DNA of 52,615 bases from an uncultured Candidatus Kuenenia sp. Its GTDB lineage: Bacteria; Planctomycetota; Planctomycetia; Pirellulales; UBA1268. The notes under the pieces were generated by a model. The model searched no databases, was not told the DNA's origin, and saw only the letters and a list, made by a program, of their open reading frames with translations. The stretch's first letter is position 1, and each line of letters opens with the position of its first letter. The stretch lies in NCBI GenBank assembly GCA_964508125.1, contig CAZDTC010000001.1, positions 1-52,615 on the forward strand, written 5' to 3'. Positions 1,952 to 35,643 of the stretch are shown one piece after another. The position numbers were made by a program, and so were the translations under genes.

Positions 1952-3478
1952 TTAGGCCGGGCTTGGGGTGGCAGTCGGCGTCGTGAACGCGCGGCGATAC
2001 GACCACCCATTGCGAAGGCGATTCTTTACGGTCGCATACTTGATCCCACTGGCCTTGGCCGCCGCTCGGATACTGTCGTACCGGAAGATCTTTCTGTCGT
2101 GGCGAAATTCAATCCTAGTCTTGTTTCGTCGGTTGCTGTCAGGCGGCGTGGTAAGTGCTCTTCTCACACTCCACCCCAGAACATCCAGTCGATAACTGAC
2201 GCAGGTCTCCGACAGCGAATACTCCTTGGCGGCTCTCCTGCGACTAGCGTAGCAATACAACTTGCCACGATAACGAAACCGCAGTGGCTTCGCCTTTGTG
2301 GTTGGAGAACCAAGATCCTGCAGGCCTGCCGCCTGCTCAGGGGTTTTGCCCATCCGAAGTCGCCGCCGGAACGTATCTGGATTGACCTCGTAGCATCTGG
2401 CGGCGGCGGACTCCGACGGGAATGTGGTTCCAGCAACCCTAATCGCTCTGCCACTTACAGCGGAGCACCCACCGCCGCCTCGTGACTTGTTAAGGCCAAC
2501 GGGAGCGAGGGTGTTTAGCAAGGCAATAAAATGCCTCTCGAACGCATCGAGCTCGTGTTGCGTGCCAGCGGTGGCGAGAACCTCGGTTCGAAATGAACCT
2601 GGTCCGTCACGTCTTATGAGGGCAGCCACCCGCGACTCCGTTCGCGTTGGCGCACGCAAGGCATCAATGCAGTGCCGAGCCCAACGCCGAGCGAAAGTCG
2701 TCACCGTTTGCCCGACGTACTTCTTGCCAGAGGGAGCATGGGTCAACAGGTACACAATCCCAAAAGATCGTTTGGTGTGCTTTGGGTGTGGCTCTAGGTC
2801 GAGAGCTTGTTCCAACGTCCAGCCCGCGTTTTGGTGACGGTCGTAGACCGTCTCATACGTCTTGTTGAAGTGCCTGCAGGCCGCCCTAAGGCTCCGAAAG
2901 TGCTGCGGTTCATCCGATGCCCGAACCGTAACAGCCCTTTTGTTTTCAGGGGGTGCAAGACCAACGGCAGCCTCCGGTGACTGACCAGACTGAATGCGAT
3001 GCCGAATGGTGTCGCCACTCATGCCGTAATGGGCGCCGACGGCACCATACCCGTGAAACGTGAGTTGTTGATCGCCGTCATGAACTGTGATCAGGGTTGA
3101 ATTATGCGTAGGAGGCCTCTTTGGAGGGTCAGTCAATCCGACCGCAGCCTCGATAGACCATCCGCGATCAACGGCCGCCCGTATCCGAGCCTCCGGGATG
3201 TTGAAATAGCGCCCCAGCCTCGCATAGCCCCGGAAGGTGCGACGGACGCCATCCACGACAAGCACGAAAGTCTTGGTGTTTGGCGGCTGAGGCCTTTCCG
3301 GAGGCGGATCTAAACTGACGGCCTGTCGGCTCGTCCATCCAAGCCGCAGACGATCTTTGATCTTTCCGCTTGGCACGTTGTATTCATTGGCAGCGGCCTG
3401 CCTGCTCTCAAAAACCCGCAACATGCCGCCATCCAATACGGAGAAAGATGTCTTCATGGGCCTAACGTCTACGCTCAC
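1952..3478 (-). CDS. GIY-YIG nuclease with seven flanking ~55-aa HTH-like (NUMOD/IENR-like) repeats
   Basis: The GIY-YIG core is at aa 239-332 (nt 2483-2764): 'FGIVYLLTHAPSGKKYVGQT', 'RRWARH', 'ELDAFERHFI', 'GLN'. Four N-terminal and three C-terminal repeats share the pattern '..G....F.S...AA.......T...R...GWS.E.A', e.g. 'IEFRHDRKIFRYDSIRAAAKASGIKYATVKNRLRNGWSYRRAFTTP'. Confidence 0.75.
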   Translation of the reverse strand: MSVDVRPMKTSFSVLDGGMLRVFESRQAAANEYNVPSGKIKDRLRLGWTSRQAVSLDPPPERPQPPNTKTFVLVVDGVRRTFRGYARLGRYFNIPEARIRAAVDRGWSIEAAVGLTDPPKRPPTHNSTLITVHDGDQQLTFHGYGAVGAHYGMSGDTIRHRIQSGQSPEAAVGLAPPENKRAVTVRASDEPQHFRSLRAACRHFNKTYETVYDRHQNAGWTLEQALDLEPHPKHTKRSFGIVYLLTHAPSGKKYVGQTVTTFARRWARHCIDALRAPTRTESRVAALIRRDGPGSFRTEVLATAGTQHELDAFERHFIALLNTLAPVGLNKSRGGGGCSAVSGRAIRVAGTTFPSESAAARCYEVNPDTFRRRLRMGKTPEQAAGLQDLGSPTTKAKPLRFRYRGKLYCYASRRRAAKEYSLSETCVSYRLDVLGWSVRRALTTPPDSNRRNKTRIEFRHDRKIFRYDSIRAAAKASGIKYATVKNRLRNGWSYRRAFTTPTATPSPA

Positions 3479-3866: not shown

Positions 3867-4316
3867 TCAGCGTCGGGCCCGCGCCGCTTCCCGCTGCCCC
3901 TGGACATCGAGGATCTCGGCAACCTCAAACACCGGAGGCATCGCCCCGAACCGCGGCCGCAGGCGGACGACGGGAACGAAATACCCAGCCCGTCCGTGAA
4001 TCTCGGCAATCACCAGGCAGGCGACGGGGGAGAGCGCTGGCGGCACGATCGCCAGCCTGCACGACTGCCACTGTTCCGATGTCAGTCCAGCGGCCTCGAC
4101 AAAGCCAGCCGCCTGCTCCGCGAACGGCCGGGCCAAATCGCAGTGGGTTGGAACCGCCAAGATGTGATCTACGCGCCAACCCGATAAGCGCTCACAAGCT
4201 GCCACCTGTGCTCTGGTGAGTGGATGGGCAAAATTAATGACCGTCACCTTGGGGGCTTCCCCGCCGCAACCGCGCAACGTCGGAATGTCGGCCCGGTTGA
4301 GTTCCATCTCAGCCAT
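3867..4316 (-). CDS. Small alpha/beta protein, possibly Csx15-like CRISPR-accessory family
   Basis: 'VINFAHPLTRAQV...LAIVPPALSPVACLVIAEIHGRAGYFVPVVRLRP...PPVFEVAEILDVQ' matches my recollection of Csx15-family proteins, which I cannot verify without a search. The start is set at an internal Met, because the ORF-track start at 4439 adds an Arg/Gly-rich extension. The gene is divergent from the CARF gene at 4681. Confidence 0.4.
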   Translation of the reverse strand: MAEMELNRADIPTLRGCGGEAPKVTVINFAHPLTRAQVAACERLSGWRVDHILAVPTHCDLARPFAEQAAGFVEAAGLTSEQWQSCRLAIVPPALSPVACLVIAEIHGRAGYFVPVVRLRPRFGAMPPVFEVAEILDVQGQREAARARR

Positions 4317-4680
4317 TCTCCAGCGAATCCCTGACTGCCTTTCCTCCACCAGCCTGGCGTGCCCTCCGCCGCCGCGTGCGTCGGTCTTGATGGACGCCCG
4401 AGCCAGAAAGATGCGTTGCATGGCCACGCCGGATCTCATGCGGCTTGCGACGTTTTGGCATCCTTAGGCAGTGGCGGTTCACGGCGACCATTCCAAAATC
4501 TGGTGACAGGTTGGAAATTGAGGCATCCTGTCCTTATTACGCATGGATCGACTCACACGTGACCAAACGGTCCCGGACTGCCGTTCTCATCGCATATAAA
4601 GAAGGGAATTTCCCTGACCGACGACGGGCCGTCACGTTTCGCCCAGTTCGTTCGTATCGTTTGCGAGGAATCTCCCATCC

Positions 4681-6150
4681 ATGAAAACCATCGTCTGCAC
4701 AACGGGCACCTCCATCGCCGCTGGCGTGCCAGAAGAAACTCGGAACCGCGGCGGCGAAGCATTTCGCGAAGCGATTCGCAAGCGGCTCGCTGGTCTTGCA
4801 TCTGGGCTGGCGTCTGGCGAGTTTCTCGAGCGTGCGAGCGCCGAATCCAACAGCGTCTGCCGGCTCGCTCCCGCGGCAGGCGACCGCGTGGTTCTGCTCT
4901 GCTCTGAAACCGATGAGGGGACGATCTGCGCGGAGGAGGTACAGCGTCTTCTGGCCAATCATCTTCACGTCGCCGCCGAGTGCCGGCGCATCGAGGGCCT
5001 GCAGGCTTCGGACGCAACACGCTTCCGCCGCGTCGGCGTGCAGAACCTGTTCGGAGAGCTCGATCGCCACTGCGGATCATCACGATCTGGCGGTGGCGAC
5101 TCCGTGTTTCTTAATGTAACCGGCGGCTTCAAGTCGGCCGTCCCTTACGTGACGCTTTACGGCCTTCTTCACCAGGTCCCCGTGGTATACATCTTCGAGC
5201 GAAGCGACCGGCTATTCACGCTTCCCCAGGCCCCGGTGCGATTCGACTACGATCGCCTCGCTCCGGCCGCTGAAGCGATCTTCACGCTCTACCGTGAGAC
5301 GGACATGCCCAAGGAGGAGTTCTTCAAGCGGATTTCAGGGCTTCCGTTCCACGAGCGGGCGATCTATGAACCGCTGCTCGACGAAGAAAACGGCCGCGTC
5401 ATGCTCTCCGCCTTCGGCTTGCTCCTCCACGAAGCACTGCAGCGGGATCGCGGCAACGTCTTCCTCTCCCCGAGTGCTGCCAAGGCATTCGAGGACGCCA
5501 CGGGCGACGCCCGCGACCAGCTCGCGTTCATGCTCGACCGGGTCGGTGACCCGCTGATGCGACGAGCGAAACGCCACTCATTCCACGGCACCGATCTCGA
5601 GGTCTACAAGCCGGGCAACACAGCACAGCGAATGGCCTACTTCATGCGCGGTGACGACGTGCACGTCTGCGAGCTCTATCCGACACACGACGAGGGCTAC
5701 GAGAAGATGTTGGCTACAAGGCGAGTCGCTGACTACGAAACCGCCCGGTTCGTGCCTTGGTCGCGGCCTGCGGAGTTGCCGCCCAGCCCATCGACCGACG
5801 AGCAATGGGCGAACGAGCAGGCCCGAAAGTTCTCGCGGCTACAGGACCGCTGTACGATGCTTGAGCGCCGGGCCGCAGAAGCCGAAGAGCAGGCCTTGCG
5901 CCTCGTTGAACTTGAGGACGAGATCGCCGCAGCCCGCGCCGAGGCTGCTTCAACGGAGGCGAGGTTTGCGGCAACCGATGCGGAACGGCTTACCCTCGCC
6001 GCGCAGGTCGAGCAGGGCCGTGCACGCGAGCAATCGCTCCGCGACGAGGCGATGTCGGCAATCGCGTCGGCAGACCGCGTTCGACGCTTTGCCTCGGAGG
6101 CCGGCTGGCTTGGGCGTCTACGGTTCCTGCTCAGCGGAAAGATGACATGA
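4681..6150 (+). CDS. CARF domain - RelE/ParE-like toxin domain - coiled-coil fusion protein
   Basis: The N-terminus 'MKTIVCTTGTSI', 'SAESNS' and 'FLNVTGGFKSAVPY' are hallmark CARF (APE2256/Csm6-type) motifs (aa 1-250). Residues 258-345 (nt 5452-5715), 'VFLSPSAAKAFEDATGDARDQLAFMLDRVGDP...LEVYKPGNTAQRMAYFMRGDDVHVCELYPTHDEGY', follow the RelE/ParE pattern. Residues 375-465 are heptad-rich and Ala/Glu/Arg-rich (coiled coil). An SD-like 'gaggaa' lies upstream. The stop overlaps the next ATG (ATGA at 6147-6150). Confidence 0.75.
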   Translation: MKTIVCTTGTSIAAGVPEETRNRGGEAFREAIRKRLAGLASGLASGEFLERASAESNSVCRLAPAAGDRVVLLCSETDEGTICAEEVQRLLANHLHVAAECRRIEGLQASDATRFRRVGVQNLFGELDRHCGSSRSGGGDSVFLNVTGGFKSAVPYVTLYGLLHQVPVVYIFERSDRLFTLPQAPVRFDYDRLAPAAEAIFTLYRETDMPKEEFFKRISGLPFHERAIYEPLLDEENGRVMLSAFGLLLHEALQRDRGNVFLSPSAAKAFEDATGDARDQLAFMLDRVGDPLMRRAKRHSFHGTDLEVYKPGNTAQRMAYFMRGDDVHVCELYPTHDEGYEKMLATRRVADYETARFVPWSRPAELPPSPSTDEQWANEQARKFSRLQDRCTMLERRAAEAEEQALRLVELEDEIAAARAEAASTEARFAATDAERLTLAAQVEQGRAREQSLRDEAMSAIASADRVRRFASEAGWLGRLRFLLSGKMT

Positions 6151-7001
6151 GCGAGAGGTCTCGCGTGATCCGCCGACGCAGAATGCCGGGGGTGGATTTC
6201 CATTCCTCCGGTGGGATATACCGAATCCACTTTTCGGAGAATCCGAAGATCGACGCCGCAACAGGATTGCGAATGAGTTTCGACTCGGAAGAAACCATCG
6301 AGTCTCGCATCGCCCGCTGGTTGGAGACCGGCGAGGGACAAGACGACGTTTTTCGAGCCGTCACCAAATTGATCGAGGCACGGCGCAGGTACTTTTCCGA
6401 ACTCTACGGCGAGCGAGTCACGACGGAAGCACTGGACGACGCTCCCGGGCGGGTGTTTCTAAAGATCCGGGCGGGCCGTTTCACCGCAGGAAGACCTTTT
6501 CGTCCATGGCTGAAGATCGTTCTAAGGAACCGGATTTTTGACATCCTGCGGCAGGAGGAGCGGCGAGCAGAGAAGTTTCCGATACATGACAAAGCCGAAA
6601 CCGTACGTGACGACGCCGATATCGACCGAACGATCAATGTCGCACAAGACGCTTTGCAGGCAGACCTGCTCGTTCGCGTGGTCGCCGAGCTCGAACGTCT
6701 TCTCAAGCCCGACAACCGACTCATTTTTGCCGTCGCTTCCGGACTTGCTGAGCACCTTGATCGGCCGGTGCTCGATCGTTGGTGTGCCGCCTGCAACTGC
6801 GGGCTGCCACTTCGCGAGGTCGTCGATGAGTTGCTGGAACTTCCAATCCACGGTCGGCTGAGCAGACTTGCCACTGCGTTTGGCCTCAAGCCGAATACCT
6901 GCATCAAACGTTTCCATCGGGCTGCGGAGGACCTTGCGAAATCTCCGCTCTTGAAGGACCTTCGGAATATTCTGGACGGAGCAGTCCCACCAGGCGCCTG
7001 A
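6147..7001 (+). CDS. ECF-type sigma-70 family factor (with ~65-aa N-terminal extension and insert in region 4)
   Basis: Region 2-like 'EALDDAPGRVFLKIRAGRFTAGRPFRPWLKIVLRNRIFDILRQEERR' aligns by eye to RpoE '[38 protein letters not shown]'. Region 4 HTH-like 'LSRLATAFGLKPNTCIKRFHRAAEDLAK' is also present. The gene is translationally coupled to the upstream CARF-RelE gene. Confidence 0.65.
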   Translation: MSERSRVIRRRRMPGVDFHSSGGIYRIHFSENPKIDAATGLRMSFDSEETIESRIARWLETGEGQDDVFRAVTKLIEARRRYFSELYGERVTTEALDDAPGRVFLKIRAGRFTAGRPFRPWLKIVLRNRIFDILRQEERRAEKFPIHDKAETVRDDADIDRTINVAQDALQADLLVRVVAELERLLKPDNRLIFAVASGLAEHLDRPVLDRWCAACNCGLPLREVVDELLELPIHGRLSRLATAFGLKPNTCIKRFHRAAEDLAKSPLLKDLRNILDGAVPPGA

Positions 7002-7095
7002 ACGAGGCCAGGCAGAACGCCTGTCACGAATCCACAGACTCCCGCGTAAACGAGCTAGATGGGTAACACGACGGAGTCACTTGCGAGACACTGCG

Positions 7096-8112
7096 ATGCA
7101 CGACGACACTTCCCTCATTCAGACACTGGCCCGACTCGGCCAGGCTGCGGCCGCTGACGCCGCGGCGGCCCGCGGCGTGCTTGCTGACCTGGGAAGGCGG
7201 GCCGCGTCTGGTGCGGAACCCCTCCACGTTGCCGCCGGCGCGGTGCCCGCCCTCCTTCAGGCGGGCCGCGTGATCGCGTCGGAAATCGCTCACGAAACCA
7301 AGCAGTTGTCGTCTCTCGACGACCGCTGGCATGCGGCGACATCGCAGGCCGAGGCCGACGCCATAGCGTCCGCCCCGCTCGCCGCGCGTCTGGAGGCAGG
7401 CTTCGCGCTTGAGGGCGTCGAGTCGCTGATCGAGACCACCGCCGGTGAAACCGGCCCGATCAAGGACGTGGCGCGCAACCTGGCCTCGGCCATTGTGGCC
7501 TACGATGCGTCGCTGCGTCGCAACCTCGACTGCCTCTGCACGCTTGCCGACGGCGATTCACTAATTGCGTGGCGGCGATCACTACCGCCGGGCATGGATT
7601 TTCCGTGGTGGCTCGACGGTACGCTCGAAGCACGGGCTTGTGCAAATGACAAGCATTCGGCGGCCCTTGCCGCGCGGCTTGCGAGTGCGTTTGCCGGACA
7701 ATCTGTCGCTGCCGCGCCCCGACTGGCAGCCTCGACAGTCGCGGCAGCGGCGATCGGCACTGCGGCAGGTTATTCCCTCGCGGCCGCGATACCGCCGGCT
7801 GCCGGCATCACGACGCACATCTGGCGTCATCCTTCGCGGCCCTTCGAGGCGGTGCTGTGGGTGCCGGCCAGGTTCGCCGACGACGCCGACCTGAGGATGG
7901 TGTTCCAGGCGACCGGCCCGGGGTTCGCGCCCCGCGATCTCGTGGGCGAGGTCGTGATGCTCGGCGGACTGCCTGCGGTCGTCCGGGAGGATGGCGAGGG
8001 TCCGGCCGCTCGCGTGGAAGCGACGTGGCCGGCGCACGCCGTGGCCGACTCCATCCGCAACACGGTCGCGTTGACAGACGGCCGCGGCGACAACTGGATT
8101 CCGGCGGAGTGA
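7096..8112 (+). CDS. Hypothetical Ala-rich protein (~338 aa); positional candidate for anti-sigma / protease substrate
   Basis: Long ORF in the operon between the sigma-factor gene and the Lon/CARF/palm gene, with no recognisable motif. The ATG at 7096 is preferred over the TTG at 7081. The functional label is inferred only from position. Confidence 0.5.
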   Translation: MHDDTSLIQTLARLGQAAAADAAAARGVLADLGRRAASGAEPLHVAAGAVPALLQAGRVIASEIAHETKQLSSLDDRWHAATSQAEADAIASAPLAARLEAGFALEGVESLIETTAGETGPIKDVARNLASAIVAYDASLRRNLDCLCTLADGDSLIAWRRSLPPGMDFPWWLDGTLEARACANDKHSAALAARLASAFAGQSVAAAPRLAASTVAAAAIGTAAGYSLAAAIPPAAGITTHIWRHPSRPFEAVLWVPARFADDADLRMVFQATGPGFAPRDLVGEVVMLGGLPAVVREDGEGPAARVEATWPAHAVADSIRNTVALTDGRGDNWIPAE

Positions 8113-8125: not shown

Positions 8126-11100
8126 GTGGCCGTCCCGCCGGGGCCCGCAACGATGTTTGTACCCTCCCGCGACACACTCGATACATCCTGTCGCGACGAT
8201 GCATCGGCTGACCCGCAGCGTGCTGTACGGCTGGTCAGCGACATGGGCCCTCTCGGGCGGCTCTGGCTGCGGCCCGATGTTCTCGCGTTGGCGGAGCGAT
8301 TTGCCGGCGGTGCGTCGCTGCCGCGGGCTCCACTGGGTACTGGCGGGTTTCACGCCCTGCTTCTGACACCGGGCCGCGGCCGCTATGCAGCGCTCCGCCC
8401 AGCGTTCGCCCTGCCGCTTCGGTGGGTGGCCGGCGACACCCATTCCCCTCATCTTCCGCCGGGACTCACCGACTTCGCCACAACGCTGCTCGCCGAACAT
8501 GAGATCGAGTTCGGCATCGCCCCTCCTCCCACGGGCCATTGGACGCTGCAACTCGGCGGCTTTCTCGAGGGGCGGTGCGACTTCTCGCAGTTCGACTTCG
8601 GATGCGAGTGGGATTCGGCGACAGCGTCGCTGCTCGGCGGATTGCTGCTCGCGGTGATCGGGGCACCACCCGATGAGCAGGTGATGGCGTCAATCGCCTG
8701 GGGCCCGGGCGGTCTTGGCCGGGTGGAGGGCATTGCCGACAAACTCGACGCTGCCCGCGACGCGGATGCCCGACTCGCATTCCTCGCCGCCGCCGATCGC
8801 GAAGACGCAGCCCGCTGGCACGTCGCCAATCCTGACGCTCCGCTGCGAACCATCGTGCTCGAGTCCCGACCCACGCTTCGTGAGTCGCTGGCTCCCTTCC
8901 TCCAGGCGATCGAGGCCCGGCCCAGCGCCGATGCCCCCCTCCCGGAGCTGCAGCGGTTCTACGAAAAGCGGCTCTTGGGGGCCGATTTCGCCGAGCACCG
9001 TCGCAGCTTTTACCTCGACGTAGTCGTCGATCGTATCGCCGCCGACTATCGGGGCCCACTTCCGCCCGCCGATCCGTGCCGCAACCTGATCGGCGTGGTC
9101 GGCCCGGGCGCGGCTCCGCCGCTGGCGTTCCTCGCCCGCGTGCTGGCCCCGCGCCGGGTGCTGCTCCTGCACGACGCGCAGGCCGCCAGGCACGCCGAGG
9201 CGCTCGAGGCCCACCTCACAGGCGTCCGCGGCGTCGCCGTGACATCGCACGAGTTCAAGACGCTCTTCGGCCCGCTCGACGAGTTGCGACCGGAGGTTGA
9301 GCGGGCGATTGCCGCATTTCTTGGTGACGACCCGGTCGACGACGGCTTCGTGGACACGGTGATCGACCTCACTGGCGGAACCCGGCGGCTGCCCTTCGTC
9401 CTGCTCGACATCGCGCCCGCGCGAGCCGCTTGCGTGCACATCGATGCCGAACGCGTGAGCGGTCAGATCGAGAGAATCGGCACGGAGAAGATCGTCACGA
9501 TCGACGTCCCGAGGGCGGGGCGATTGGCGTCGAAACTTCTTGCCGCGCTGTCCCAGGGTTCCGTGTCGGTGCCGGTATGGCACCTCGCGCCACTTGACCG
9601 ATGGCACCTGCTGCGTGACACGTGCCTTGGCCACGCCCCCGTCCGCGGCGGCATGCGCACTCGTGATCTGCCGCTTGACCCCGAGGCTCGCGAACTGGTG
9701 CAGACAGCCGCCCGTGTCCAGTCGAGCGAATACGAAGTGGGCGGCAAGGTGAAATGTCGTTTCGGAGATTGGCTTTACCTGTTCGCGGTTCTCGTCGAGC
9801 CGGCGTTGGCGAAATCACCCGATGCGGCCCACGCGGCGATCCGCGAATGCATGCTGGAGCTGCGGCAGGCTCTCGGACTCAGTGAGCTCCGGGATTTCGC
9901 CAACAAGTGCCCGTTTCACCACCGTCTGCTTGGCATCCTCGGCCTGAGCCGGCAGGAGTGGCAGCGACTCGCGTCTGAGGGCACTTCTTTTGAGCGGGAA
10001 CGACTGGTCGCGAGGCTCGGCGCCCGTGTCTGCGCTGCATTCCGTAGCCCCGAGCCCCCACACCTTTCACCGGAAGATCCGGATGTGCTCTCCTGGGCCG
10101 TACGTGCGATTGGGGCCAAGGATCGTGACCGAGAACTTCTCCAGGATCTCGCTGACGCAAAGCGGGTTCTGGTGACGATCAAGCCGAAGGATATCCAGCC
10201 GTACATGCATCGCGCGAAGATGCATTGGATGATGAGGGGGGCGAGCGTCTGGTGTGCGCAGTCGCTGGGCTTCGCCCGCGACCACATCCTCGAAAAGCAA
10301 GGCGGACTGCTACTCAGCGACCTTGATGCCCTCGTGGCATTCGTGTTTCCCGAAAATGCTCCCGTGGTGAAAGACATGCTTCAGGGTGTCGCGGCCGCGT
10401 GGGCGAACCCTGCATCCTTCAAAACCAAATTCCCACGTCTTGCCGCTTACCACCCAGCCAACGAACAACACCGCCACCACGGCATCGACCCCATTCAGTC
10501 GCTGCCGCTCCTATCTGCGTGGCGATATCCAACGACGTCGCTTCTCGATCTCTGCGTTGCACGCGGTTCGCGCGCCCCTGAAATGCGTGGTGAAATTCCA
10601 CGACCTCTGCCGCGCGACGCCGCCACAGCCGCAGGCGACGTTCCATGCTCCTTCGTCGAGCGGGAAAACGCCTATGTTTCACAATCACCCACGTGGCTGA
10701 CTGACCGCAGCGACCGACAACGGGAGAATTATGGTTGGTCGGCGCTCTGCTGGTCGCTCGCTGGGACAACCCTGCGGACCCACTGGCATCACGGCGTGTG
10801 CGCAGCACTGAACCGTGACGACTACCCGATGATGGCGGTCAGCCACGGCGGCTGGCTCGAGCATCTCAAGATGAAGACCGAGCGGCTAACTTTTGTGAAA
10901 CTGGATGGAGACGGTGTTGGAGAGCGTTTTCTCAATGAATCATTTCCAAGTCGCCCACTTCTCGGCCTGAAACTCGGCCGGCTTGTTCAGGAGCGGGTCT
11001 TGGCGGCCACACGGCGCGTGCTCGAGGTTCACGACGCGGCGAAACGCCCAAAGTATCTCCCCGTCGACCTGGTTTACTTCGGCGGCGATGATATTTTCTT

Positions 11101-11491
11101 CTGCCTACCAGGCTGCTACCTCGAGCCATTTCTGCAGGGCTTCGGCCAATCGTTCGATGGGAGCGAACTCGCTCCATGGAAGTCCACGCGTTTCAGCGCT
11201 CTATCTGTCACCCTGCCGCCGGGGTCGGACTTCAAGGACAACGGCCGACTGTCGCAGTCGGAGGAATTCGCCCGCGCGAACCTGGCAGCTGCAAAGACGC
11301 TCGCTCCCGGCCTGCGGGACCTCGTCAAGCGAGGGCACCCTGATGACGCCACTCTCGCCAAGCTGAACAATTCAGTCGCGCCCCTGGGCTATCGCTGCGA
11401 GTGGGGCGGGACCCATGCAGACACCGGCATCGTCCACGGCGTCAGCCTCAGGCTCGTCCGGCTTACCCGCGACCCCGCGATTTCCGGCTGA
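8126..11491 (+). CDS. Multidomain protein: Lon-like (S16) Ser/Lys protease motif + CARF-like Rossmann domain + helical region + C-terminal GGDD palm (mCpol/Cas10-like cyclase) domain
   Basis: Lon-like: 'EWDSATASLLGGLLLAVIGAPPDEQVMASIAWGPGGLGRVEGIADKLDAA' parallels the Lon 'GDSAS...AL.G.P....VA.TG.....G.V..VGG...K..AA' pattern (Ser164 at nt 8615-8617, Lys206 at 8741-8743). CARF-like: 'RRVLLLHD...VIDLTGGTRRLPFVLL' (TGGT at nt 9371-9382). Palm: 'LTFVKLDGDGVGERF' (nt 10904-10915) and 'VDLVYFGGDDIFFCLPG' (GGDD at nt 11081-11092), as in Cas10 / minimal CRISPR polymerase. No HD domain was seen. Confidence 0.6.
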   Translation: MAVPPGPATMFVPSRDTLDTSCRDDASADPQRAVRLVSDMGPLGRLWLRPDVLALAERFAGGASLPRAPLGTGGFHALLLTPGRGRYAALRPAFALPLRWVAGDTHSPHLPPGLTDFATTLLAEHEIEFGIAPPPTGHWTLQLGGFLEGRCDFSQFDFGCEWDSATASLLGGLLLAVIGAPPDEQVMASIAWGPGGLGRVEGIADKLDAARDADARLAFLAAADREDAARWHVANPDAPLRTIVLESRPTLRESLAPFLQAIEARPSADAPLPELQRFYEKRLLGADFAEHRRSFYLDVVVDRIAADYRGPLPPADPCRNLIGVVGPGAAPPLAFLARVLAPRRVLLLHDAQAARHAEALEAHLTGVRGVAVTSHEFKTLFGPLDELRPEVERAIAAFLGDDPVDDGFVDTVIDLTGGTRRLPFVLLDIAPARAACVHIDAERVSGQIERIGTEKIVTIDVPRAGRLASKLLAALSQGSVSVPVWHLAPLDRWHLLRDTCLGHAPVRGGMRTRDLPLDPEARELVQTAARVQSSEYEVGGKVKCRFGDWLYLFAVLVEPALAKSPDAAHAAIRECMLELRQALGLSELRDFANKCPFHHRLLGILGLSRQEWQRLASEGTSFERERLVARLGARVCAAFRSPEPPHLSPEDPDVLSWAVRAIGAKDRDRELLQDLADAKRVLVTIKPKDIQPYMHRAKMHWMMRGASVWCAQSLGFARDHILEKQGGLLLSDLDALVAFVFPENAPVVKDMLQGVAAAWANPASFKTKFPRLAAYHPANEQHRHHGIDPIQSLPLLSAWRYPTTSLLDLCVARGSRAPEMRGEIPRPLPRDAATAAGDVPCSFVERENAYVSQSPTWLTDRSDRQRENYGWSALCWSLAGTTLRTHWHHGVCAALNRDDYPMMAVSHGGWLEHLKMKTERLTFVKLDGDGVGERFLNESFPSRPLLGLKLGRLVQERVLAATRRVLEVHDAAKRPKYLPVDLVYFGGDDIFFCLPGCYLEPFLQGFGQSFDGSELAPWKSTRFSALSVTLPPGSDFKDNGRLSQSEEFARANLAAAKTLAPGLRDLVKRGHPDDATLAKLNNSVAPLGYRCEWGGTHADTGIVHGVSLRLVRLTRDPAISG

Positions 11492-11584
11492 AATCGCGCT
11501 TTTTTCCCGTCGGTCACGCTTCGCGGCCCCCGAGCGTACTTCCCGTGTCGACCGATATTCGCTCCGACACGATAGGAACCCGCC

Positions 11585-12562
11585 ATGAACAACCGCACTC
11601 TCGCCCTGCTCGTCGCCGCCATCCTCGCAGTGGTCACCATTTTCGGCCTTCAGTCGCAGCAGAGCGCCGTCGTGGTTCGCCCCGTCCCTGCCGATGTGGC
11701 CGCCGGCACCTATGACCGCATCCACCTGAGCGTAGCCGCCGCGACGGCGCGAAACGAGCAGGCTGCCCGACTCTGCGAGAGCGAGATCAACATGATCCTT
11801 GCCCGCGAGTTTCCCGAGATCGAGCGCCGCGGGAACAAGGTCGCCGAGGAGGTCGCAAGCTATGGCTCCTGCTGCACGATCATCTACCGCCTGGCCAAGG
11901 AGAAGCTCGGTTGGTCTTCGAGCACGGCCGACTACGTCGAGGGCGAGATCCGCGGTCGCCTGCAGCCGGCCCTCGACACGTGCGGCCGCGAACTCGACAC
12001 GGCCCTCGACCGCTGTGAACTCGCCCTCAGGGAGAGCACGGTGATGCTGGCGACTGAGCTTGCCCAGATGAGTCCGTCTCGGGCTGACCAGTCGATGAAC
12101 ATCGCCGTGGACGTCCGCACCGGCGGTGACCTTGACCAAGCCCTTCGCAATCTTGGCCTCAGCGGCGGCATTCTCACGGTGAGCGGCGCCTTCGACGTGG
12201 TCGCCATCATGAACACCACCGTCTTCCGCACCATGATCCGCACGATCGTGGAGTTGGCTGCATCCCTGTTCGCCACGCCTGCCGCCACTGCTGCTGGCTC
12301 GGCGGCCGTGGCGGCCGCTGACGGCCCTCTGCCGGTGGGCGACGTCATCGCGGTGCTGGGTGGAGCCTGGACGGCCTACGACATCTACGCAACCCGACGT
12401 GAGTTCGAGCGGGAAATCAAGGCTTCACTCTCGAACGCCCTGCCGGAGATGAAGCGAACCGTCCACCACCAGCTCATGGAGCGACTCCACTCGCTCCAGT
12501 CCGAGTACCAGCGGGCTCAAGACCGGATCCGCAACGAGATGGCCTTGAACCTCACCCGATAG
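11585..12562 (+). CDS. Membrane protein, family A (paralog of 44665..45696)
   Basis: N-terminal TM segment 'LALLVAAILAVVTIFGL', then a helical domain, then C-terminal hydrophobic segments with the conserved 'DGPLPVGDVIAVLGGAWTAYD'. An SD-like 'aggaa' precedes the ATG. Clear similarity by eye to the 44665 ORF. Confidence 0.65.
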   Translation: MNNRTLALLVAAILAVVTIFGLQSQQSAVVVRPVPADVAAGTYDRIHLSVAAATARNEQAARLCESEINMILAREFPEIERRGNKVAEEVASYGSCCTIIYRLAKEKLGWSSSTADYVEGEIRGRLQPALDTCGRELDTALDRCELALRESTVMLATELAQMSPSRADQSMNIAVDVRTGGDLDQALRNLGLSGGILTVSGAFDVVAIMNTTVFRTMIRTIVELAASLFATPAATAAGSAAVAAADGPLPVGDVIAVLGGAWTAYDIYATRREFEREIKASLSNALPEMKRTVHHQLMERLHSLQSEYQRAQDRIRNEMALNLTR

Positions 12563-12572
12563 GAGCCCTTCC

Positions 12573-13484
12573 ATGACCACCTTCAGCCGCCGCCTTGTCC
12601 TCGCGTCGCTTCCCCTGCCGGTGGCGTTTGCCGTCGCCACGTCCGGCGTCGCCTTCGCCGTGCCGGGCGTGGGAACGCTCGTGCGCGAGACCGTGGAAAT
12701 GGCCGTCAAGAAGAGCGGCCGTGAGGTCGTCGAGCGTGCTTCTCGGGAAGTGGCCGAGCAGGCCATCGAGAAGGGTGTGGCGAAGTACGGGCCTCGGGCG
12801 GCCCAGGCCGTCGTCGACGGCGGCATGGAGCTCGTTGAGGCATCCGCGAAGTACGGCGACGACGTCATGCGGGTGGCTGTTGAGGCGACACCAGCGGCAC
12901 GCCGGGCGCTCGCGCTCGAACCGGGCCGGATGCTGCCCCTCGTCCGCGAACTCGGCCAGGAGGCCGTCGAGCTCGAGGCCAAGGCGCCGGGCCTCGCCCA
13001 AAGGGTGTTCACCACCTTTGGCGACGACGGCGCGCGGCAGATCGCCCGAACGGTTCCGGCAGAAGACGTGCCGCGGCTGCTTTCCCACGCCGAGCGGGCC
13101 GAATCTCCGGCTGTGCGTCGCGCACTCCTCGACGCTTACAAGAAGGAGGGGCCCGCGATGTTTGCGAAAATCACGCCCAAAATAGTTGTTGCCATCGGGG
13201 CGAGCGGCGCCCTCGTGTACGGCACTCACCGGATGACCGGTCCGTTCGCTGCCTTGGCCCACTGGATGCGCATCAATCCTGATGCGGCCCGTGACATGCT
13301 TCGGGGGCTTCTTTGGATCATGGGCACGGTCGCCGTCCTGACGACGGTCTTTGTACTGGGATCCTTTCGCCTCACCCCGTGGCACGCTCGACGGCCAGCA
13401 GATCACTGGAAGGCAACAGGCTCAGATCCTACGGGGACTGCAGCGGGGGACCGACGCACCGCTATCGACGGCGTGTCCGGTTGA
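12573..13484 (+). CDS. Membrane protein, family B (paralog of 45708..46628)
   Basis: Signal/TM 'LVLASLPLPVAFAVATSGVAFA', a helical Ala/Glu/Arg-rich domain and two C-terminal TM segments. SD 'aggag' lies 8 nt upstream, directly after the stop of the previous gene. Similar along its length to the 45708 ORF. Confidence 0.65.
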   Translation: MTTFSRRLVLASLPLPVAFAVATSGVAFAVPGVGTLVRETVEMAVKKSGREVVERASREVAEQAIEKGVAKYGPRAAQAVVDGGMELVEASAKYGDDVMRVAVEATPAARRALALEPGRMLPLVRELGQEAVELEAKAPGLAQRVFTTFGDDGARQIARTVPAEDVPRLLSHAERAESPAVRRALLDAYKKEGPAMFAKITPKIVVAIGASGALVYGTHRMTGPFAALAHWMRINPDAARDMLRGLLWIMGTVAVLTTVFVLGSFRLTPWHARRPADHWKATGSDPTGTAAGDRRTAIDGVSG

Positions 13485-13572: not shown

Positions 13573-15153
13573 TCAGCATTGAACTGCATGCCTGATGGCA
13601 TCACACACCCGACGGCAGACGGCGTCCACATGCACGAGGTCGACTGCGGCCTCCGTATCCGACTCTCGATTGTGAGCAAAAGTGTCCCTCGTGATCCGCA
13701 GGCTGTCGAGATCGTTGAACAGCCCTGGAAGGTAGCGAACGGCAGCCGCCACGAGTTGCGAGTGCGCCGCGACGCTCGGCGGGTCACACAGCACCAACGG
13801 CAACAGCCAGATCGTAATACTCTCGCCGAAGCCGCACTTATCGCTCTGGATCAATTGCACGGCCGGAACGATCTTCCTGGCCGACTCGACGCTTCGGCAT
13901 AGGTGCGTAAACGACCCTGCTACCGCCTCCCTGAGACCAATTCGGTCAAAAGCTTCCGTCACATTCCGCTCGCCCACTCGCGACTCGATCACGGCGGCCT
14001 GCTGCTGACGAGGCAGCCGCTGCAATTGCTCCCACCACCCCAGCACATGGTCACGCGACTGGTGCCGCAGTTCGACGCCGATTTGTTCAATCAGGTGCTC
14101 GTATCCAGAGCACGCATCGCGGTACGTGGGTGCTCCGGCCTGCCACTGAACCAGGTTCCTGTGCGGAGTGTCAACCCAGTCCGCTACTATCGGCAGGACG
14201 CTGCGCAGGTCATCCACAGTCCATCCTGCTCTCTTTCGGTGAGCGGTCACGCGACGCTCGAGTTCGGCGGCGCTACCGATAACCGTTGGCAGATGAGACA
14301 TCTCGTAGAGTTCTTGGCAGCGATTCTCCACCTCTGCATACACCTCGGGCACGTTGGTGTTCATCCACTGCCCAAGCCGCTCATCCACCGGACCGTCGGA
14401 CTCGGCCGAATCAGTGTCCTCTGGCAGGCTCACGACCGGTGCATGAAATACAGCCAAAGGGCGATCGCTGACCCGCGGAATCAATACAACTTTGGACCAC
14501 ACGCACGTTCGCTTCCATGGGCCGCCGATGGGCTCGCGAGCCTGATCCCTGAGGATGGATCTGACACGTAGAGCGCCTCGCTCGGGCAACGAAGTGGCTG
14601 GAAGATCAGGAAACGACACATCCGCGCCAGCGTCATCGTCATCGCTCGCTTCATCGTCGTCGGCATCTTCCTCGGAGGCTGCTCCCAGGGGCTCGATCCT
14701 CAAGCTCGGCCAACCCGGCAGCATGCGGAGTTCGAAGTCCAGGTCGACGTCCTTGACGCATGCTCGCATGTCGATCGAAACGCGCGGCGATGGCAGATCT
14801 CGGTCGAGCCAGACGGCAGGCAAGAGGCTGGCTGTATGGGGAGCAACGAAAACCCAGCCAGGCATCAGGGCTCTTCCGGCAATGTGCGAGTCAGAGGCAT
14901 TGCTCGCGACAAACAATTCCTTGCTTCCCTCGACGACCTTGCACAGTTGCTCGTCGATGAGCAGGTTCACCGCGGACTGGACGATGTCCTCGGGAATCGC
15001 GAGTTTCCGGACCATGTCCTGGATCGACTGCGCTCCGGCCTCCATCAAGCGGAGAACGGTCTCCGACAGAAGATCGAGATGATCCTCCGCGTCTATCGCG
15101 ATCTGAACCGGCACTGCCACCGTCGGAATCGAAACCCAAAGCACTTTTCTCAT
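13573..15153 (-). CDS. wHTH-like N-terminus, acidic linker, C-terminal HEPN-like (Rx4H) domain protein
   Basis: The start at 15153 overlaps the helicase stop (ATGA), indicating coupling. The N-terminus 'LSETVLRLMEAGAQSIQDMVRKLAIPEDIVQSAVNLLIDEQL' is wHTH-like. An acidic run 'ASEEDADDDEASDDDDAGAD' follows. The C-terminus 'LRITRDTFAHNRES' contains R-D-x3-H (nt 13672-13689), the HEPN RNase signature. Confidence 0.55.
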   Translation of the reverse strand: MRKVLWVSIPTVAVPVQIAIDAEDHLDLLSETVLRLMEAGAQSIQDMVRKLAIPEDIVQSAVNLLIDEQLCKVVEGSKELFVASNASDSHIAGRALMPGWVFVAPHTASLLPAVWLDRDLPSPRVSIDMRACVKDVDLDFELRMLPGWPSLRIEPLGAASEEDADDDEASDDDDAGADVSFPDLPATSLPERGALRVRSILRDQAREPIGGPWKRTCVWSKVVLIPRVSDRPLAVFHAPVVSLPEDTDSAESDGPVDERLGQWMNTNVPEVYAEVENRCQELYEMSHLPTVIGSAAELERRVTAHRKRAGWTVDDLRSVLPIVADWVDTPHRNLVQWQAGAPTYRDACSGYEHLIEQIGVELRHQSRDHVLGWWEQLQRLPRQQQAAVIESRVGERNVTEAFDRIGLREAVAGSFTHLCRSVESARKIVPAVQLIQSDKCGFGESITIWLLPLVLCDPPSVAAHSQLVAAAVRYLPGLFNDLDSLRITRDTFAHNRESDTEAAVDLVHVDAVCRRVCDAIRHAVQC

Positions 15154-18100
15154 GAATGCACCATCCGGCTTGGAATCACGATGCCGCGGCATCCGTCTGC
15201 CACTTCCTGCTGCATCGCTTCGAACACGCGACGCATCGGGGGCGGCTCGCGTGTCCCGCGAGTCCGGGCTGCGAGGGTGGCCGTGTCGCCGATGATGATC
15301 AGCTGCCGCTGGGCACGCGACATGGCAACATTGATCCGCTGCGGCAACGCCATGAATCCCAGGGATGCGTTCGGGTTGCTGCGGACTGCCGAAAGAATCA
15401 CCAGCGGATATTCCTTGCCCTGAAAGCTGTCCACCGTTCCGATCTCGATCGTTCGCTCGATATCTGGCCTGCCCATCTGCTGCACGAGGGCCTCGATTAG
15501 TTTTCTCTGCTCGCTGTAGAACGCTATGACGCCGATCGTCTTGCGGCCGCCGATTTGTTCCGCGAGCGTGGCAATGGCCTCGGCATCGACGGTCTTCAAG
15601 AGCGTTTCGATAATGGCTACTTCGTACCGGTTGGTTTCATGGCAAGGCCATGCCGGAACCCGACGGATCGCTCGCTGCGTCGGATCGGCCAGCACGTCGC
15701 TCGTATCGATCCAGACCAGGGGATGATTCGTCGCCTTACCCCACACGGGGTCGTCCGCCTCATGCCCCCTGCCAACCACGGGGATACCGAACGACGGCAA
15801 CCGGGACTTCGCTCGCGAGAGGTCGTGCGTCCAATGTGAATCCAGTTTTCCGTCATAGAAAACGTTGCTGATGGTCTGCCCGATGGCCTCATGCATCCGG
15901 TACTGCATCGTCAGGGGGATCTTGTTCTCGCTCGGCACTCGTGCCCAAAGCCATTCAAAGAAGGACTCCCGCTGAAGATCGACTTCGCGTCCTTCCTCCA
16001 TCTGTTGCGCGATGAGTTTGTCCACGTGCGGAGGCAACTGCTGCTGGTCGCCGATCAGCACCACGGATCGCCCAAGTGTCATTGGGATGAGGATGTCGAT
16101 GCCTGCCCGGGCCGCCTCGTCGATGATGACGACGTCATAGCCATCATTGACGCCCACTCGTGGTGCAGCCGACCGTTGACACGTCGCGGTTGAAACCGGA
16201 GCATGCCTCGCAAACACCTTCTCGAGCCGCCTGGGCTCATCCCGAAGCGCTCTGATCCATGAGTAGATCACGGCAGGCTCACCCGTTGCGACCTCGCTCT
16301 TCGCGTGCTCAACGCAGCCCGCAGCGAGGCCCATCCACTCCACGACGTCTCTCTCCACCGGGGCCCAATGATCCTCGTATGCAGCCTGACTGTCATCCTC
16401 GCGTTCCGTTGACAAGGCCGCCACCGTGCGTTCGATGAGCCCCTGCCACGAGCTGACCACATCCGCCGGTACGGAGTCGCTCAGGGCGAGGCCGAGCTTC
16501 ACCGCGAGCGTACGCCACTCCTTGGCCAATGCTTGGTGCGCGACAGGCGCCTCGAGAAGCGACTTCCACGCATCGGAAGCGGACCTCACCGTGTCAGCAA
16601 CCTGCTTGGCTGCATCGGCGGCGGTCGTGGCGGGAGATGCGGAGAGCCGCACCAGTAATTCCGTCACGGCCGAGCCGCCCGTCACCTGCACGACGATCGA
16701 CGGCTGCTGCCGGCGCTCGACATCGGCCTGTATTGCCCGCCGCATCGACGACTCTATCGCCGCCAGCTTCTGCACCAGCAGCGGCGGCAACTCCGTCGCC
16801 TCCTCGGTCGCAGCGATCCCCACGAGCTCGGCAACGACAGCCTCGTTCACCTTGCGGGCGGCGACTTCATGCCGCAGCGTGCGGATCCGATCCCCGAGGT
16901 CGCTCAAGCGGAGAAAACTGATAAACCGCGAGTCCCCTTCCACGGTCGCCTTCAACCGGGCGACGATACGCGCCGCCTCGCTGAGGAACCGCCGCGTCTG
17001 AGCGACACGGTGCCTGTTTTTGCGATCCGAGCCAAAATCCGCGTAGACCTGCACTTCGTCGCCGGAAAGTTTCTCGATCGCGTTGAGGACCGCATCGTTC
17101 TGCACGCTGGTCACGAGCACGCGCAGTGGACCGCCTTCCTCCTCCCGTCGATTCCTGTATCGCCGCCGCAATGCGTGAATCAGCTCCACGATCACGCTGG
17201 TCTTCCCCGTGCCGGGCGGTCCTTGGACCAGGAATAGGCCCGGTTGCTGCACCGCCCGCTGGATGGCCCCCTTCTGGGCGTCGTTCAGCGGTGGCGATCC
17301 TTTTCGTGACTCGTACTCGTTCTTGGGCGGCGAGACCGGCGTCACCGACGACGGGTCGGAAACGTACTGCAGCATTTGCGGACAGGCCGCCGCACCCGTC
17401 CGCAGTCTTGTGATCGCTTCTTCCCGCCGTCTTCTCTGGGCTGCGTCACCGGCATCCTCGGCCGCGATCAATCGCCCTCGCGCGAACGGTGCTTTGCCAT
17501 CTCGTATGCGTATCGTCGCCACAGTACGTCCCGCGTTGGCGTCCTCGGCAAACGCCACCACCTCGGCCGCGATTGGATCGGCGTGGGAGTCACCTGCTTC
17601 GAGTGAATGCATCTCGACCATGCCCTTGACGCGCACGCCCCGCCGCAGATCGAAGTTATCACTGGCAATCCATCGCTCGATGGCTTCGCGTGGGCTGGCC
17701 ACATTGACTCTCCACGTGTCACCCGCCGCCTGCCCGACGACCTCGAGGTAATCGAGCGGCGTGCTCGCCCGCGATTCAAAAGTCCCTCGTTCTGCCGCCT
17801 TTGCGATCATCTCGTATTCCAGCCATGCATCTAGGAACGGGTGCGGCCGGGGCCTGAAGGTCGAAAGGTCCGCGAACCTGATGTTCTGCTCCGTCACAGT
17901 GAATACCGGCGGCTGCGACACCGCGATCAGTCGTGCCTCGGGAATGGCCGTTGGTCGATCCTGAATCTCCTCGACAACTAGGTACTCCGCGCCACGACCA
18001 CCTCCCACGCGACACGCCAGCCGCTTTCGATTTGCGAGATACACGTATATCCGCAACGCATCGGCCGACGACGACTCGATCGACCCGAGCAGGGGCGTGG

Positions 18101-18584: not shown

Positions 18585-18586
18585 GC

Positions 18587-22468: not shown

Positions 22469-22488
22469 GCTTCTTTTCCTCTGGCCGC

Positions 22489-28579: not shown

Positions 28580-28786
28580 ATGCGGATCGTGGAATACAAC
28601 GGCGCGCCCGTGAAGCGGCAGACGAAGATAGGCCCGGACCAGATCAAGGTCGTCTTTTACGACCGTGCCCCCATCATCGTGACCTCGCAGCAGTGGGCTC
28701 AAAACGCCCGCGACCGCTTCTTCGACGACCCGGCGGTTCGCCGCCGTGACGTGGTCCGGCCACCGGCTCGGCGGAGCTGGTGGTAG
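28580..28786 (+). CDS. Small hypothetical protein (68 aa)
   Basis: The ATG is preceded by 'gggag', and the ORF lies immediately upstream of the SNF2 gene. There are no motifs. The coding status is uncertain. Confidence 0.3.
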
Positions 28787-28946
28787 TCGCCGACGCGACC
28801 AACTGAAGGGTCCGCGCCGTGCGACGGACCAACGTTGTCCCAGCGACTGCGTAGGCTGGCGGACTTCCCTCCGCCCCCATACTCTGGAGGGGCTTCCTCC
28901 CGTACACAAGCCCCTTGCGGCGGCCCGCACGCAGGCGTTGCCCACA

Positions 28947-32467
<3,521 letters not shown>

Positions 32468-32471
<4 letters not shown>

Positions 32472-35398: not shown

Positions 35399-35487
35399 CC
35401 GCCGTGCACCAACTACTGACGGCCCTCGGACAACCACCGTCGCTGATAGTCTGCTCGCCACCTCACTTCATGGACCTCGCCACGAAC

Positions 35488-35525
35488 TGCGTAGAGACGC
35501 CGAAAGTGCGTAGTAAACTGCGTAG
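35488..35525 (+). promoter_or_regulatory. Three copies of TGCGTAG in the DUF1156-DUF499 intergenic region
   Basis: TGCGTAG occurs at 35488-35494, 35507-35513 and 35519-35525 (spacing 19 and 12 nt). The function is unknown. Confidence 0.35.
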
Positions 35526-35529
35526 CACG

Positions 35530-35553
35530 CCCCTCCATTCAGGGGATTCTTTT
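35530..35553 (+). terminator. Weak intrinsic-terminator-like hairpin
   Basis: CCCCT (35530-35534) / AGGGG (35541-35545) with a 6-nt loop, followed by ATTCTTTT. The stem is short, so this could be an attenuator rather than a full terminator. Confidence 0.3.
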
Positions 35554-35571
35554 CGAGCCGTCTGGGTGCCG

Positions 35572-35616
35572 CGGAATTAGGTCGGAACAGCCGGAAATTA
35601 GGTAGCGAACTAGGTA
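35572..35616 (+). promoter_or_regulatory. Three TAGGT-containing direct repeats upstream of the DUF499 gene
   Basis: CGGAATTAGGT (35572-35582), CGGAAATTAGGT (35592-35603) and ACTAGGTA (35609-35616). The TAGGT cores are spaced 21 and 12 nt apart, ending ~30 nt before the ATG at 35644. This is a candidate operator or promoter region. Confidence 0.35.
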
Positions 35617-35643
35617 ATAACCCAACGGATCGGACGCCCCCTC

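Follow-up and report, generated by a model that had tools for sequence, protein, structure and literature searches.

A Cami1-like CARF-RelE protein with a coiled-coil tail in a putative CRISPR-less signalling operon of Candidatus Kuenenia

Introduction

What does a CARF-RelE protein respond to when its gene lies outside any recognizable CRISPR locus? This question is raised by the gene at positions 4681-6150 on the plus strand of contig CAZDTC010000001.1 from an uncultured Candidatus Kuenenia sp. (assembly GCA_964508125.1). The contig was analysed over 52,615 nucleotides (nt), and this whole stretch is called the window below. The gene is an uninterrupted open reading frame (ORF) encoding 489 amino acids (aa). 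A first-pass annotation made from the sequence alone had read it as a CARF-RelE fusion and considered such fusions essentially uncharacterised. The latter view is outdated: CARF-RelE is Cami1, the CRISPR-Cas-associated mRNA interferase 1 (Mogila et al., Science 2023, as summarised in PMC11229360), which ranks in that survey as the third commonest effector with 135 loci. The top sequence matches of the protein in the PDB are the crystal and ribosome-bound structures of Cami1, and the entry titles describe 8phb as apo Cami1 and 8phj as Cami1 bound to cyclic tetra-adenylate (cA4) on the 70S ribosome. To our knowledge, Cami1 is the sole CRISPR-linked effector acting on the translating ribosome.

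Judged by profile searches and a predicted structure, the protein at 4681-6150 is a member of this already characterised family with an intact RelE fold, and the label 'CARF-RelE' is better replaced by 'Cami1-like'. It is probably a functional effector that provides the translation-arrest arm of a CRISPR-less cyclic oligoadenylate (cOA) circuit, with a sigma-factor arm resembling the CalpL/CalpT/CalpS system in parallel. The Cami1 family itself is known, and orphan status alone does not make a member novel; what appears new here is a C-terminal tail with an end motif and an operon context without CRISPR.

Domain composition and predicted fold of the Cami1-like protein

The gene and its parts are as follows.

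4681..6150, plus strand: Cami1-family gene composed of CARF, winged helix (wHTH), RelE and coiled-coil tail (PADLOC, profile, Foldseek, VIA-align, dN/dS)
4681..5250, plus strand: CARF sensor of the CARF7/APE2256 type, residues 1-190 (Pfam Cas_APE2256; CARF structures; GTS with S11, GGFK with K151)
5251..5451, plus strand: winged-helix-like linker domain, residues 191-257 (gap-free alignment to 8phb; SSO1393 structure 3qyf)
5452..5760, plus strand: RelE-fold mRNA interferase domain, residues 258-360 (RelE toxin structures 9g12_B, 2khe and 6af3; alignment of H336; dN/dS)
5797..6138, plus strand: single long helix or coiled coil, residues 373-486
6076..6147, plus strand: aromatic-basic C-terminal end motif, residues 466-489

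The PADLOC model CARF7--CARF_RelE matches residues 3-360 (E 3.4e-50). Pfam PF09651 (Cas_APE2256, CARF7; E 1.8e-24) and TIGR02619 both score above their cut-offs. A profile of 22 homologues of the protein (A1) aligns without a break to residues 1-357 of the 406-residue 8phb chain (E 1.3e-64). An exhaustive search yielded 1746 relatives at E <= 0.001, of which 205 reach E <= 1e-30; taken together, the PADLOC score and the number of relatives exclude chance homology. The three CARF motifs pointed out in the first-pass annotation are all in place: CTTGTS occupies residues 6-11 (nt 4696-4713), SAESN residues 53-57 and NVTGGFK residues 145-151.

AlphaFold2, run on A1, gives a confident model with a mean predicted local distance difference test (pLDDT) score of 88.4. 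It comprises the CARF domain (1-190), a helical, winged-helix region up to residue ~257, a compact alpha/beta domain (260-345) and one single helix (373-486). The segment that had been noticed for its RelE/ParE pattern (nt 5452-5715, residues 258-345) coincides with the compact alpha/beta domain. In Foldseek, the Cami1 chains 8phj and 8phb rank first (E 6.6e-23 to 5e-21, ~391 columns). VIA-align, a structure search independent of Foldseek, superimposes 8phb with Z 22.7 over 344 aligned residues (model residues 2-364). CARF structures align with Z 11-18 over model residues 1-185, and SSO1393 (3qyf) with Z 18.3 over residues 1-255.

RelE toxins match in model residues 256-355: M. tuberculosis RelE1 (9g12_B) with Z 8.9 and a root mean square deviation (rmsd) of 2.0 A over 79 of 84 residues (model 257-339), T. 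thermophilus RelE (2khe) with Z 7.7 over 83 of 89 residues, and an S. pneumoniae toxin (6af3) with Z 8.0. Hence, the proposed fusion stands, with the CARF part supported by Pfam and PADLOC and the RelE part by superposition on free-standing toxins, and structure prediction of the RelE-like segment returns the conserved fold (Z 7.7-8.9). The RelE/RelB modules of M. tuberculosis (RelBE1, 9g12) and T. thermophilus (2khe) share this fold with residues ~256-345 at an rmsd of 2.0-2.2 A. In contrast to them, the Cami1-like protein lacks an antitoxin gene, is presumably controlled in cis through its CARF domain and does not respond to the Pfam RelE/ParE models. A small antitoxin gene of the RelBE type was looked for next to it, and the sole upstream ORF is located at 4445-4684 (+).

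This ORF of 79 codons occupies the divergent intergenic promoter region between csx15 and the Cami1-like gene, whose start it overlaps by ATGA. It has no conserved counterpart in the related loci L026 or L028. Therefore, its candidacy as an antitoxin was rejected, and it is probably not a gene.

Compared with the solved Cami1 protein (8phb, 8phj), the Cami1-like protein has the same CARF(CARF7)-wHTH-RelE architecture, the same predicted fold, the CARF serine (S11) and the RelE histidine (H336). Csx15 and other neighbours from the cA4 pathway also fit the family. By contrast, the two proteins are only about 30% identical, and the Cami1-like protein adds ~130 residues consisting of a 114-residue helix and an aromatic-basic end, whereas the solved protein extends ~49 residues past the aligned region. 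The third difference concerns the operon: the gene is co-transcribed, as far as gene order indicates, with genes for a sigma-like protein, a 343-aa protein (p343) and a Lon-CARF-Cas10-like fusion, and does not lie beside a type III complex guided by CRISPR RNA (crRNA).

Active-site residues and selection

The two Cami1 structures differ at two aligned positions. In 8phj, the CARF motif GTS is changed to GTA and the RelE motif HDEY to ADEY. The Cami1-like protein retains both residues, S11 in CTTGTS and H336 in HDEGY. From the aligned sequences, the alanine changes in 8phj appear to be ring-nuclease and RNase knock-outs made for trapping the complex, and the RelE histidine would thus be catalytic. 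Support for the CARF serine as a ring-nuclease residue comes from the CARF7 enzyme Sis0811, whose PDB entries include, by their titles, S12 and K169 mutants. K151 in GGFK is invariant among the 22 homologues. The same applies in the RelE domain to R294, H299, K310, R317, E331 and Y340, and H336 and D337 are nearly invariant.

The ratio of nonsynonymous to synonymous substitutions (dN/dS) was determined by the Nei-Gojobori method against L027, a 90%-identical locus, and against L026. For the whole gene it is 0.10-0.14. The lowest values belong to the RelE domain (0.03-0.07), followed by CARF (0.08-0.09), wHTH (0.09-0.12), the last 24 residues (0.08-0.19) and the coil (0.17-0.49); for the tail, the values are 0.16-0.43. 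This means that purifying selection acts along the whole gene; the toxin domain is the most constrained part and the coil the least, yet it is still constrained.

The coiled-coil tail and its end motif

The coiled coil seen in the first-pass annotation is real, although the predicted helix is longer than the ~90 residues (nt ~5803-6075) ascribed to it: it comprises 114 residues and corresponds to nt 5797-6138. Its pLDDT is mostly 90-96, and it is rich in Ala, Arg and Glu. Hydrophobic residues recur in a heptad-like manner, with core residues in 38-50% of the a/d positions vs. 0-20% elsewhere. In structure comparisons, the tail resembles only generic coiled coils (Z about 7.5 in VIA-align). It ends with GWLGRLRFLL, a version of the clade ending PWW[KR]R[LI]F.

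The distribution of the tail was surveyed among 83 N-terminally complete proteins from the best matches in which the RelE end motif can be located. At least 80 residues past this motif are present in 73 of them (~88%), most commonly 100-150. The end motif occurs in its strict form in 28 of the 73 tailed relatives and in a looser form in 36 of 69. Aromatic residues account for 9.5% of the last 25 residues vs. 2.5% in the coil, and the end is net basic while the coil is net acidic. A tail with an aromatic-basic end is a standard feature of this Cami1 clade that has apparently not been described; in the literature searched, no paper names Cami1 together with a coiled coil. Most likely, the tails of two subunits pair in parallel into a stalk bearing a motif for docking or localisation. 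The end resembles amphipathic ends of the MinD/FtsA type. A membrane-targeting helix at the C-terminus is not claimed, as the motif does not exceed the coil body in hydrophobic moment. A tail with such an end, which is common to the clade and lacking in the solved protein, raises the question of how the effector is positioned or restrained.

Among the relatives, variations beyond the coil were observed as well. P0068, P0167, P0170 and P0187 carry an HD_4 (RelA/SpoT-type HD) hydrolase domain after the coil, while in P0088 the coil is followed by a second CARF and a Csm6-type HEPN domain. By their domain content, these five are two-effector fusions on one CARF sensor. P0107 and P0159 contain very long coiled coils.

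The operon around the Cami1-like gene

The neighbouring features are the following.

3867..4439, minus strand: gene for a Csx15 ring nuclease or cOA sponge, divergent (NCBIfam CAS_Csx15 E 1.9e-38, above cut-off; PADLOC Csx15 E 7.2e-30)
6147..7001, plus strand: gene for a putative sigma factor resembling the extracytoplasmic function (ECF) type, 284 aa (NCBIfam, PRK12512, CAS_III-E_sigma, Pfam Sigma70_r2; synteny in L027 and L030)
7081..8112, plus strand: gene for the Ala-rich p343, candidate anti-sigma factor or protease substrate by position only
8126-11491, plus strand: gene for p1121, a Lon-like protease with CARF and HD-less Cas10-like cyclase, 1121 aa
8207..9457, plus strand: Lon-like protease and CARF module, p1121 residues 28-444 (PADLOC CARF_m2--CARF_LON E 6.1e-53)
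9524..11488, plus strand: HD-less Cas10-like two-Palm cyclase module, p1121 residues 467-1121 (AlphaFold2, Foldseek, PADLOC)
11476..11498, plus strand: terminator-like hairpin with a 9-bp stem and T-run at the p1121 stop codon (consensus scan only)

The hairpin at 11476-11498 is the probable end of a four-gene operon consisting of the genes for the Cami1-like protein, the sigma-like protein, p343 and p1121. Synteny with L027 extends over the whole region from a GIY-YIG gene to p539, and with L030 from the Cami1 gene through p1121. The ATGA junction noticed earlier is exact: the ATG of the sigma-like gene (6147-6149) overlaps the TGA of the Cami1-like gene (6148-6150), and the same overlap is found in L027. 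L030 also keeps the two genes close together; there, a GTG is the probable start and overlaps the preceding gene. As a weak GGA-type ribosome-binding site is located a few bases upstream of the sigma-like start, coupling by termination and re-initiation is plausible.

The product of the second gene has an N-terminal extension, and its NCBIfam and Pfam sigma matches start at about residues 78-109. p343 is conserved, with 88% identity in L027 and 61% in L030. It has no match in Pfam, NCBIfam, PADLOC or the PDB, and an Atlas search was uninformative (best score 0.79).

In p1121, the protease part displays Lon-type Ser/Lys motifs (DSAT at 163, ADKLDAA at 204) and a CARF-like DLTGGT at 414. The cyclase part carries KLDGDG (925) and GGDD (986); GGDD and the Asp residues of DGDG are invariant among 15 homologues. 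An AlphaFold2 model of this part (pLDDT 84.9, predicted template modelling score 0.88) was compared by Foldseek: all 50 listed matches are Cas10, Csm1 or Cmr2, and the best is the type III-D Cas10 8s9t_C (E 9.3e-7). The profile of the Cas10-like family has no PDB relative by sequence and no NCBIfam family; among these searches, it was the fold comparison alone that recognised it. Descent from a type III-D Cas10 was considered and is not shown: in hhalign, the match to the Cas10 of L002 is weak (probability 16%) and confined to the GGDD region.

Stand-alone homologues of the Cas10-like part (655-681 aa) exist in metagenomes, and L030 encodes Lon-CARF and the Cas10-like part in two separate, adjacent genes. 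The family is rare: it was found in none of 400 sampled genomes of the phylum and in none of the 13 type III-bearing genomes with Cami1 relatives. A metagenomic protein of 828 aa, P0062, present on 6 contigs of up to 26.5 kb, is a tailed Cami1 fused via its coil to this family. The coil runs on into a region homologous to the N-terminal half of this family, up to about position 330 (hhalign over 303 columns, probability 97%, E 8e-11; BLASTP E 6e-10). P0062 and p1121 together reveal that the Cas10-like family is fused to CARF effectors in two ways, once to Cami1 and once to Lon-CARF.

Csx15 has been described as a cA4 ring nuclease or sponge, and about one quarter of csx15 genes are orphans (PMC13148439; bioRxiv 10.64898/2026.10.26.761840). 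It recurs beside this Cami1 clade in L002, L003, L005, L007, L020 and L026-L028. Adjoining csx15 in the window is a gene for a GIY-YIG nuclease of 508 aa (1952-3478, minus strand) with NUMOD1/HTH modules, which is syntenic in L027. It resembles group I intron endonucleases and scores just below the NCBIfam cut-off.

Relation to known signalling systems

Two published systems help to interpret the operon. CalpL-CalpT-CalpS consists of a cA4-activated SAVED-Lon protease, an anti-sigma factor and an ECF sigma factor (Rouillon et al. 2023; bioRxiv 10.1101/2024.05.08.593097). In Ca. Cloacimonas acidaminovorans, cami1 is located in the same type III-A locus as CalpL/T/S. The sigma-like gene, p343 and the Lon protease with its sensor repeat the logic of this system, and for a Cami1 gene next to such a cassette there is already an example in the literature. 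As in the Calp module, a Lon protease is fused to a cyclic-nucleotide sensor (CARF_LON). However, the sensor is a CARF (PADLOC CARF_m2) instead of a SAVED domain, the protease is fused to a Cas10-like cyclase, p343 has no detectable similarity to CalpT, and a type III complex is absent here. By analogy, a CalpS/CalpT/CalpL-like arm that also includes p343 and the Lon-CARF module accounts better for the sigma gene.

In mCpol/Panoptes and in mCpol-Csx1 fusions, a Cas10-related cyclase acts without crRNA together with a CARF effector (PMC13577387, PMC12657230, PMC12657218). These systems share with the operon a crRNA-free Cas10-related cyclase that is paired with or fused to a CARF effector, and they set a precedent for CRISPR-independent cOA signalling; mCpol-Csx1 fusions are also a conceptual precedent for the P0062 type of fusion (PMC13577387). 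The differences are that the cyclase here is a Cas10-like protein of ~655 aa with two Palm domains, not a minimal single-Palm mCpol, and that the effectors here are soluble (RelE, Lon) instead of membrane proteins.

CRISPR parts in the assembly and in relatives

The assembly comprises 3.08 Mb in 640 contigs and is 56.7% complete. No CRISPR array was detected in the window or in the whole 56.7%-complete assembly, and the assembly yielded no RAMP (PF03787), Cmr2, Csm1, Cas1 or canonical Cas10. Cas5/Cas7 RAMP partners and a crRNA that could serve the cyclase were likewise not found in it. The first-pass annotation had placed the gene outside any CRISPR locus. This holds in so far as no array or canonical cas genes are present in the assembled DNA, but the operon encodes a Cas10-like cyclase, which that annotation had missed, and csx15 adjoins it. 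Due to this cyclase, the locus is not isolated from signalling of the type III style.

The relatives are found in a different environment. No type III effector complex lies beside the Cami1-like gene here, though relatives do have one. RAMP proteins are encoded in all 13 reference genomes with Cami1 relatives, and in 5 of the 13 (L002, L009, L011, L012 and L013) on the same contig as Cami1; without the unpublished genome G009, which holds L009, the ratio is 4 of 12. In L002, L005, L010 and L011, a tailed Cami1 gene precedes a genuine Cas10 gene, after which come Cas7-type genes. In L002 and L005, Csx15 is inserted between Cami1 and Cas10, whereas in L010 and L011 Cas10 comes next at a distance of 4-5 nt. 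Homologues of the sigma-like protein, p343 or p1121 were found in none of 25 genome loci.

Proposed mechanism and alternative explanations

A functional Cami1 effector in a CRISPR-less circuit is the explanation we consider probable. It rests on the family assignment and the fold, the active-site residues, the purifying selection and the conserved gene order, as well as on a cyclase module with a Cas10 fold and GGDD motif and on assembled DNA in which no CRISPR parts occur. For the ligand and its maker, the trigger of the cyclase, the substrate of the protease and the role of the tail, we infer the following. The Cas10-like GGDD module of p1121, and not a crRNA-guided complex, most probably makes cOA on some trigger. 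By analogy with Cami1, the CARF homodimer of the Cami1-like protein would bind this cOA, most likely cA4. Binding would free RelE for the ribosomal A site, where mRNA would be cut so that translation stops. The same signal would bind Lon-CARF, whose protease would, as in CalpL/T/S, cut p343 and release the ECF-like sigma factor. The CARF domain of the Cami1-like protein (S11, K151) would then slowly degrade the signal, and Csx15 would reset it. P0062 provides a direct link between Cami1 and the Cas10-like cyclase family. If the cyclase indeed feeds Cami1, components of type III signalling would have been put to use outside CRISPR once more, similar to Panoptes. In this circuit, translation and transcription would both respond to one and the same signal.

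Several points weigh against this explanation. At a completeness of 56.7%, a canonical type III system elsewhere in the genome could be the real source of the signal. Activation of Cas10 normally needs Cas5/Cas7 partners and a target RNA, none of which is present here. In sequence, the cyclase module resembles Cas10 only weakly (PADLOC E 1.5e-6; Pfam palm2 E 0.036), so its assignment relies mainly on the predicted fold and the GGDD motif. The sigma assignment is based on scores below curated cut-offs: NCBIfam sigma70-ECF matches with E 1.4e-5 (24.8 bits vs. a cut-off of 42.9 bits) and PRK12512 with E 5.8e-6, also below its cut-off; CAS_III-E_sigma reaches E 0.0013 and Pfam Sigma70_r2 E 0.0076, and the protein has no match in the PDB. 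No similarity of p343 to any anti-sigma factor was detected. On the isolated RelE segment, the Pfam RelE/ParE models produced no match even at E up to 10, and for this reason the evidence for the fold was drawn from structure comparison.

The main rival explanation regards the Cami1-like gene as a displaced accessory gene that answers a canonical type III system in the unassembled 43% of the genome, while its operon neighbours have nothing to do with its activation. The regular occurrence of RAMP proteins in the genomes of Cami1 relatives, in five of them on the same contig (four without G009), is in line with this, as are the tailed relatives directly upstream of real Cas10 genes and the incompleteness of the assembly, in which arrays often fail to assemble. 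Yet the four-gene operon with its GGDD cyclase is kept together with the Cami1 gene in three independent contigs, 3.08 Mb of assembled sequence contain no RAMP, Cas10, Cas1 or array, P0062 is a natural fusion that links Cami1 with the Cas10-like family, and this family is missing from all 13 type III-bearing genomes. On balance, a displaced accessory gene is unlikely. The proposal that the Cami1-like protein is mainly a signal sink, whose CARF domain as ring nuclease or sponge lowers the signal reaching Lon-CARF and whose RelE domain is catalytically silent, is harder still to reconcile with the data. It is true that CARF7 relatives include dedicated ring nucleases (Sis0811; 7pq2/7pq3), that S11 and K151 are conserved, and that Cami1 itself degrades cA4 (bioRxiv 10.64898/2026.10.26.761840). 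But no other part of the gene is as constrained as the RelE domain (dN/dS 0.03-0.07), which keeps H336 along with the other invariant basic and aromatic residues, and the locus already has a dedicated Csx15, which makes a mere sink very improbable.

The tail and the ATGA overlap had been taken in the first-pass annotation as a sign that the CARF-RelE protein assembles stoichiometrically with the sigma factor or with further products of the operon. The overlap is exact in the window and in L027, gene spacing remains tight in L030, an N-terminal extension precedes the detected sigma region of the sigma-like protein, and P0062 illustrates that a tail can join Cami1 covalently to a component of the operon type, though this is the Cas10-like family and not sigma. 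Stop/start overlaps of the ATGA type are frequent in operons and do not give information on complexes. The tail is clade-wide (73 of 83 relatives), a sigma homologue is absent from the 25 genome loci, and the next genes in L010, L011, L002 and L005 are Cas10 or Csx15 followed by Cas10. As sigma-less relatives next to Cas10 have tails, too, the tail is no evidence for co-assembly with sigma and cannot be an adaptation to it. Co-assembly is thus unsupported and must be rated very improbable.

A more far-reaching extension of the preferred CRISPR-less circuit can be offered tentatively, and we regard it as rather unlikely. Here, the tail would dock Cami1 to the signal synthase like an arm, so that cOA acts locally, and the operon would be a self-contained, crRNA-free descendant of a type III-D-like locus, in which a Cas10-like hub fused to Lon-CARF drives the Cami1 arrest and the sigma switch together. 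This idea is suggested by the tailed Cami1 genes directly upstream of Cas10 in the four canonical loci and by the P0062 fusion through the coil.

Other genes on the contig

The operon is followed by two genes at 11585-13484 (+) for proteins of 325 and 303 aa with hydrophobic segments near the N-terminus and at ~190-260. A diverged paralogous pair is encoded ~33 kb away at 44665-46628 (+), with 32% and 44% identity (tblastn). At 13573-25308 (-), a four-gene operon encodes proteins matching SF1 helicases of the MkoA/MkoB type (PADLOC, E 8e-110), together with one DUF2357 protein and one resembling PDC-M26A. The region 28746-38475 (+) comprises genes for an SNF2/DEAD helicase with NOV_C, a DUF1156 methyltransferase-like protein and a DUF499 ATPase; by its domains, it looks like a restriction-modification-like defence cassette. 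It is followed at 38488-42021 (+) by two adjacent genes for proteins with CsgG/TolB_N/FlgO-like lipoprotein domains, one with an N-terminal DUF4145 and the other with C-terminal HEAT repeats. Genes for large serine recombinases with Recombinase, Zn_ribbon_recom and Resolvase domains are located at both contig ends (3-1769 and 49903-52596, both plus strand), and the contig as a whole has the appearance of a mobile defence island.

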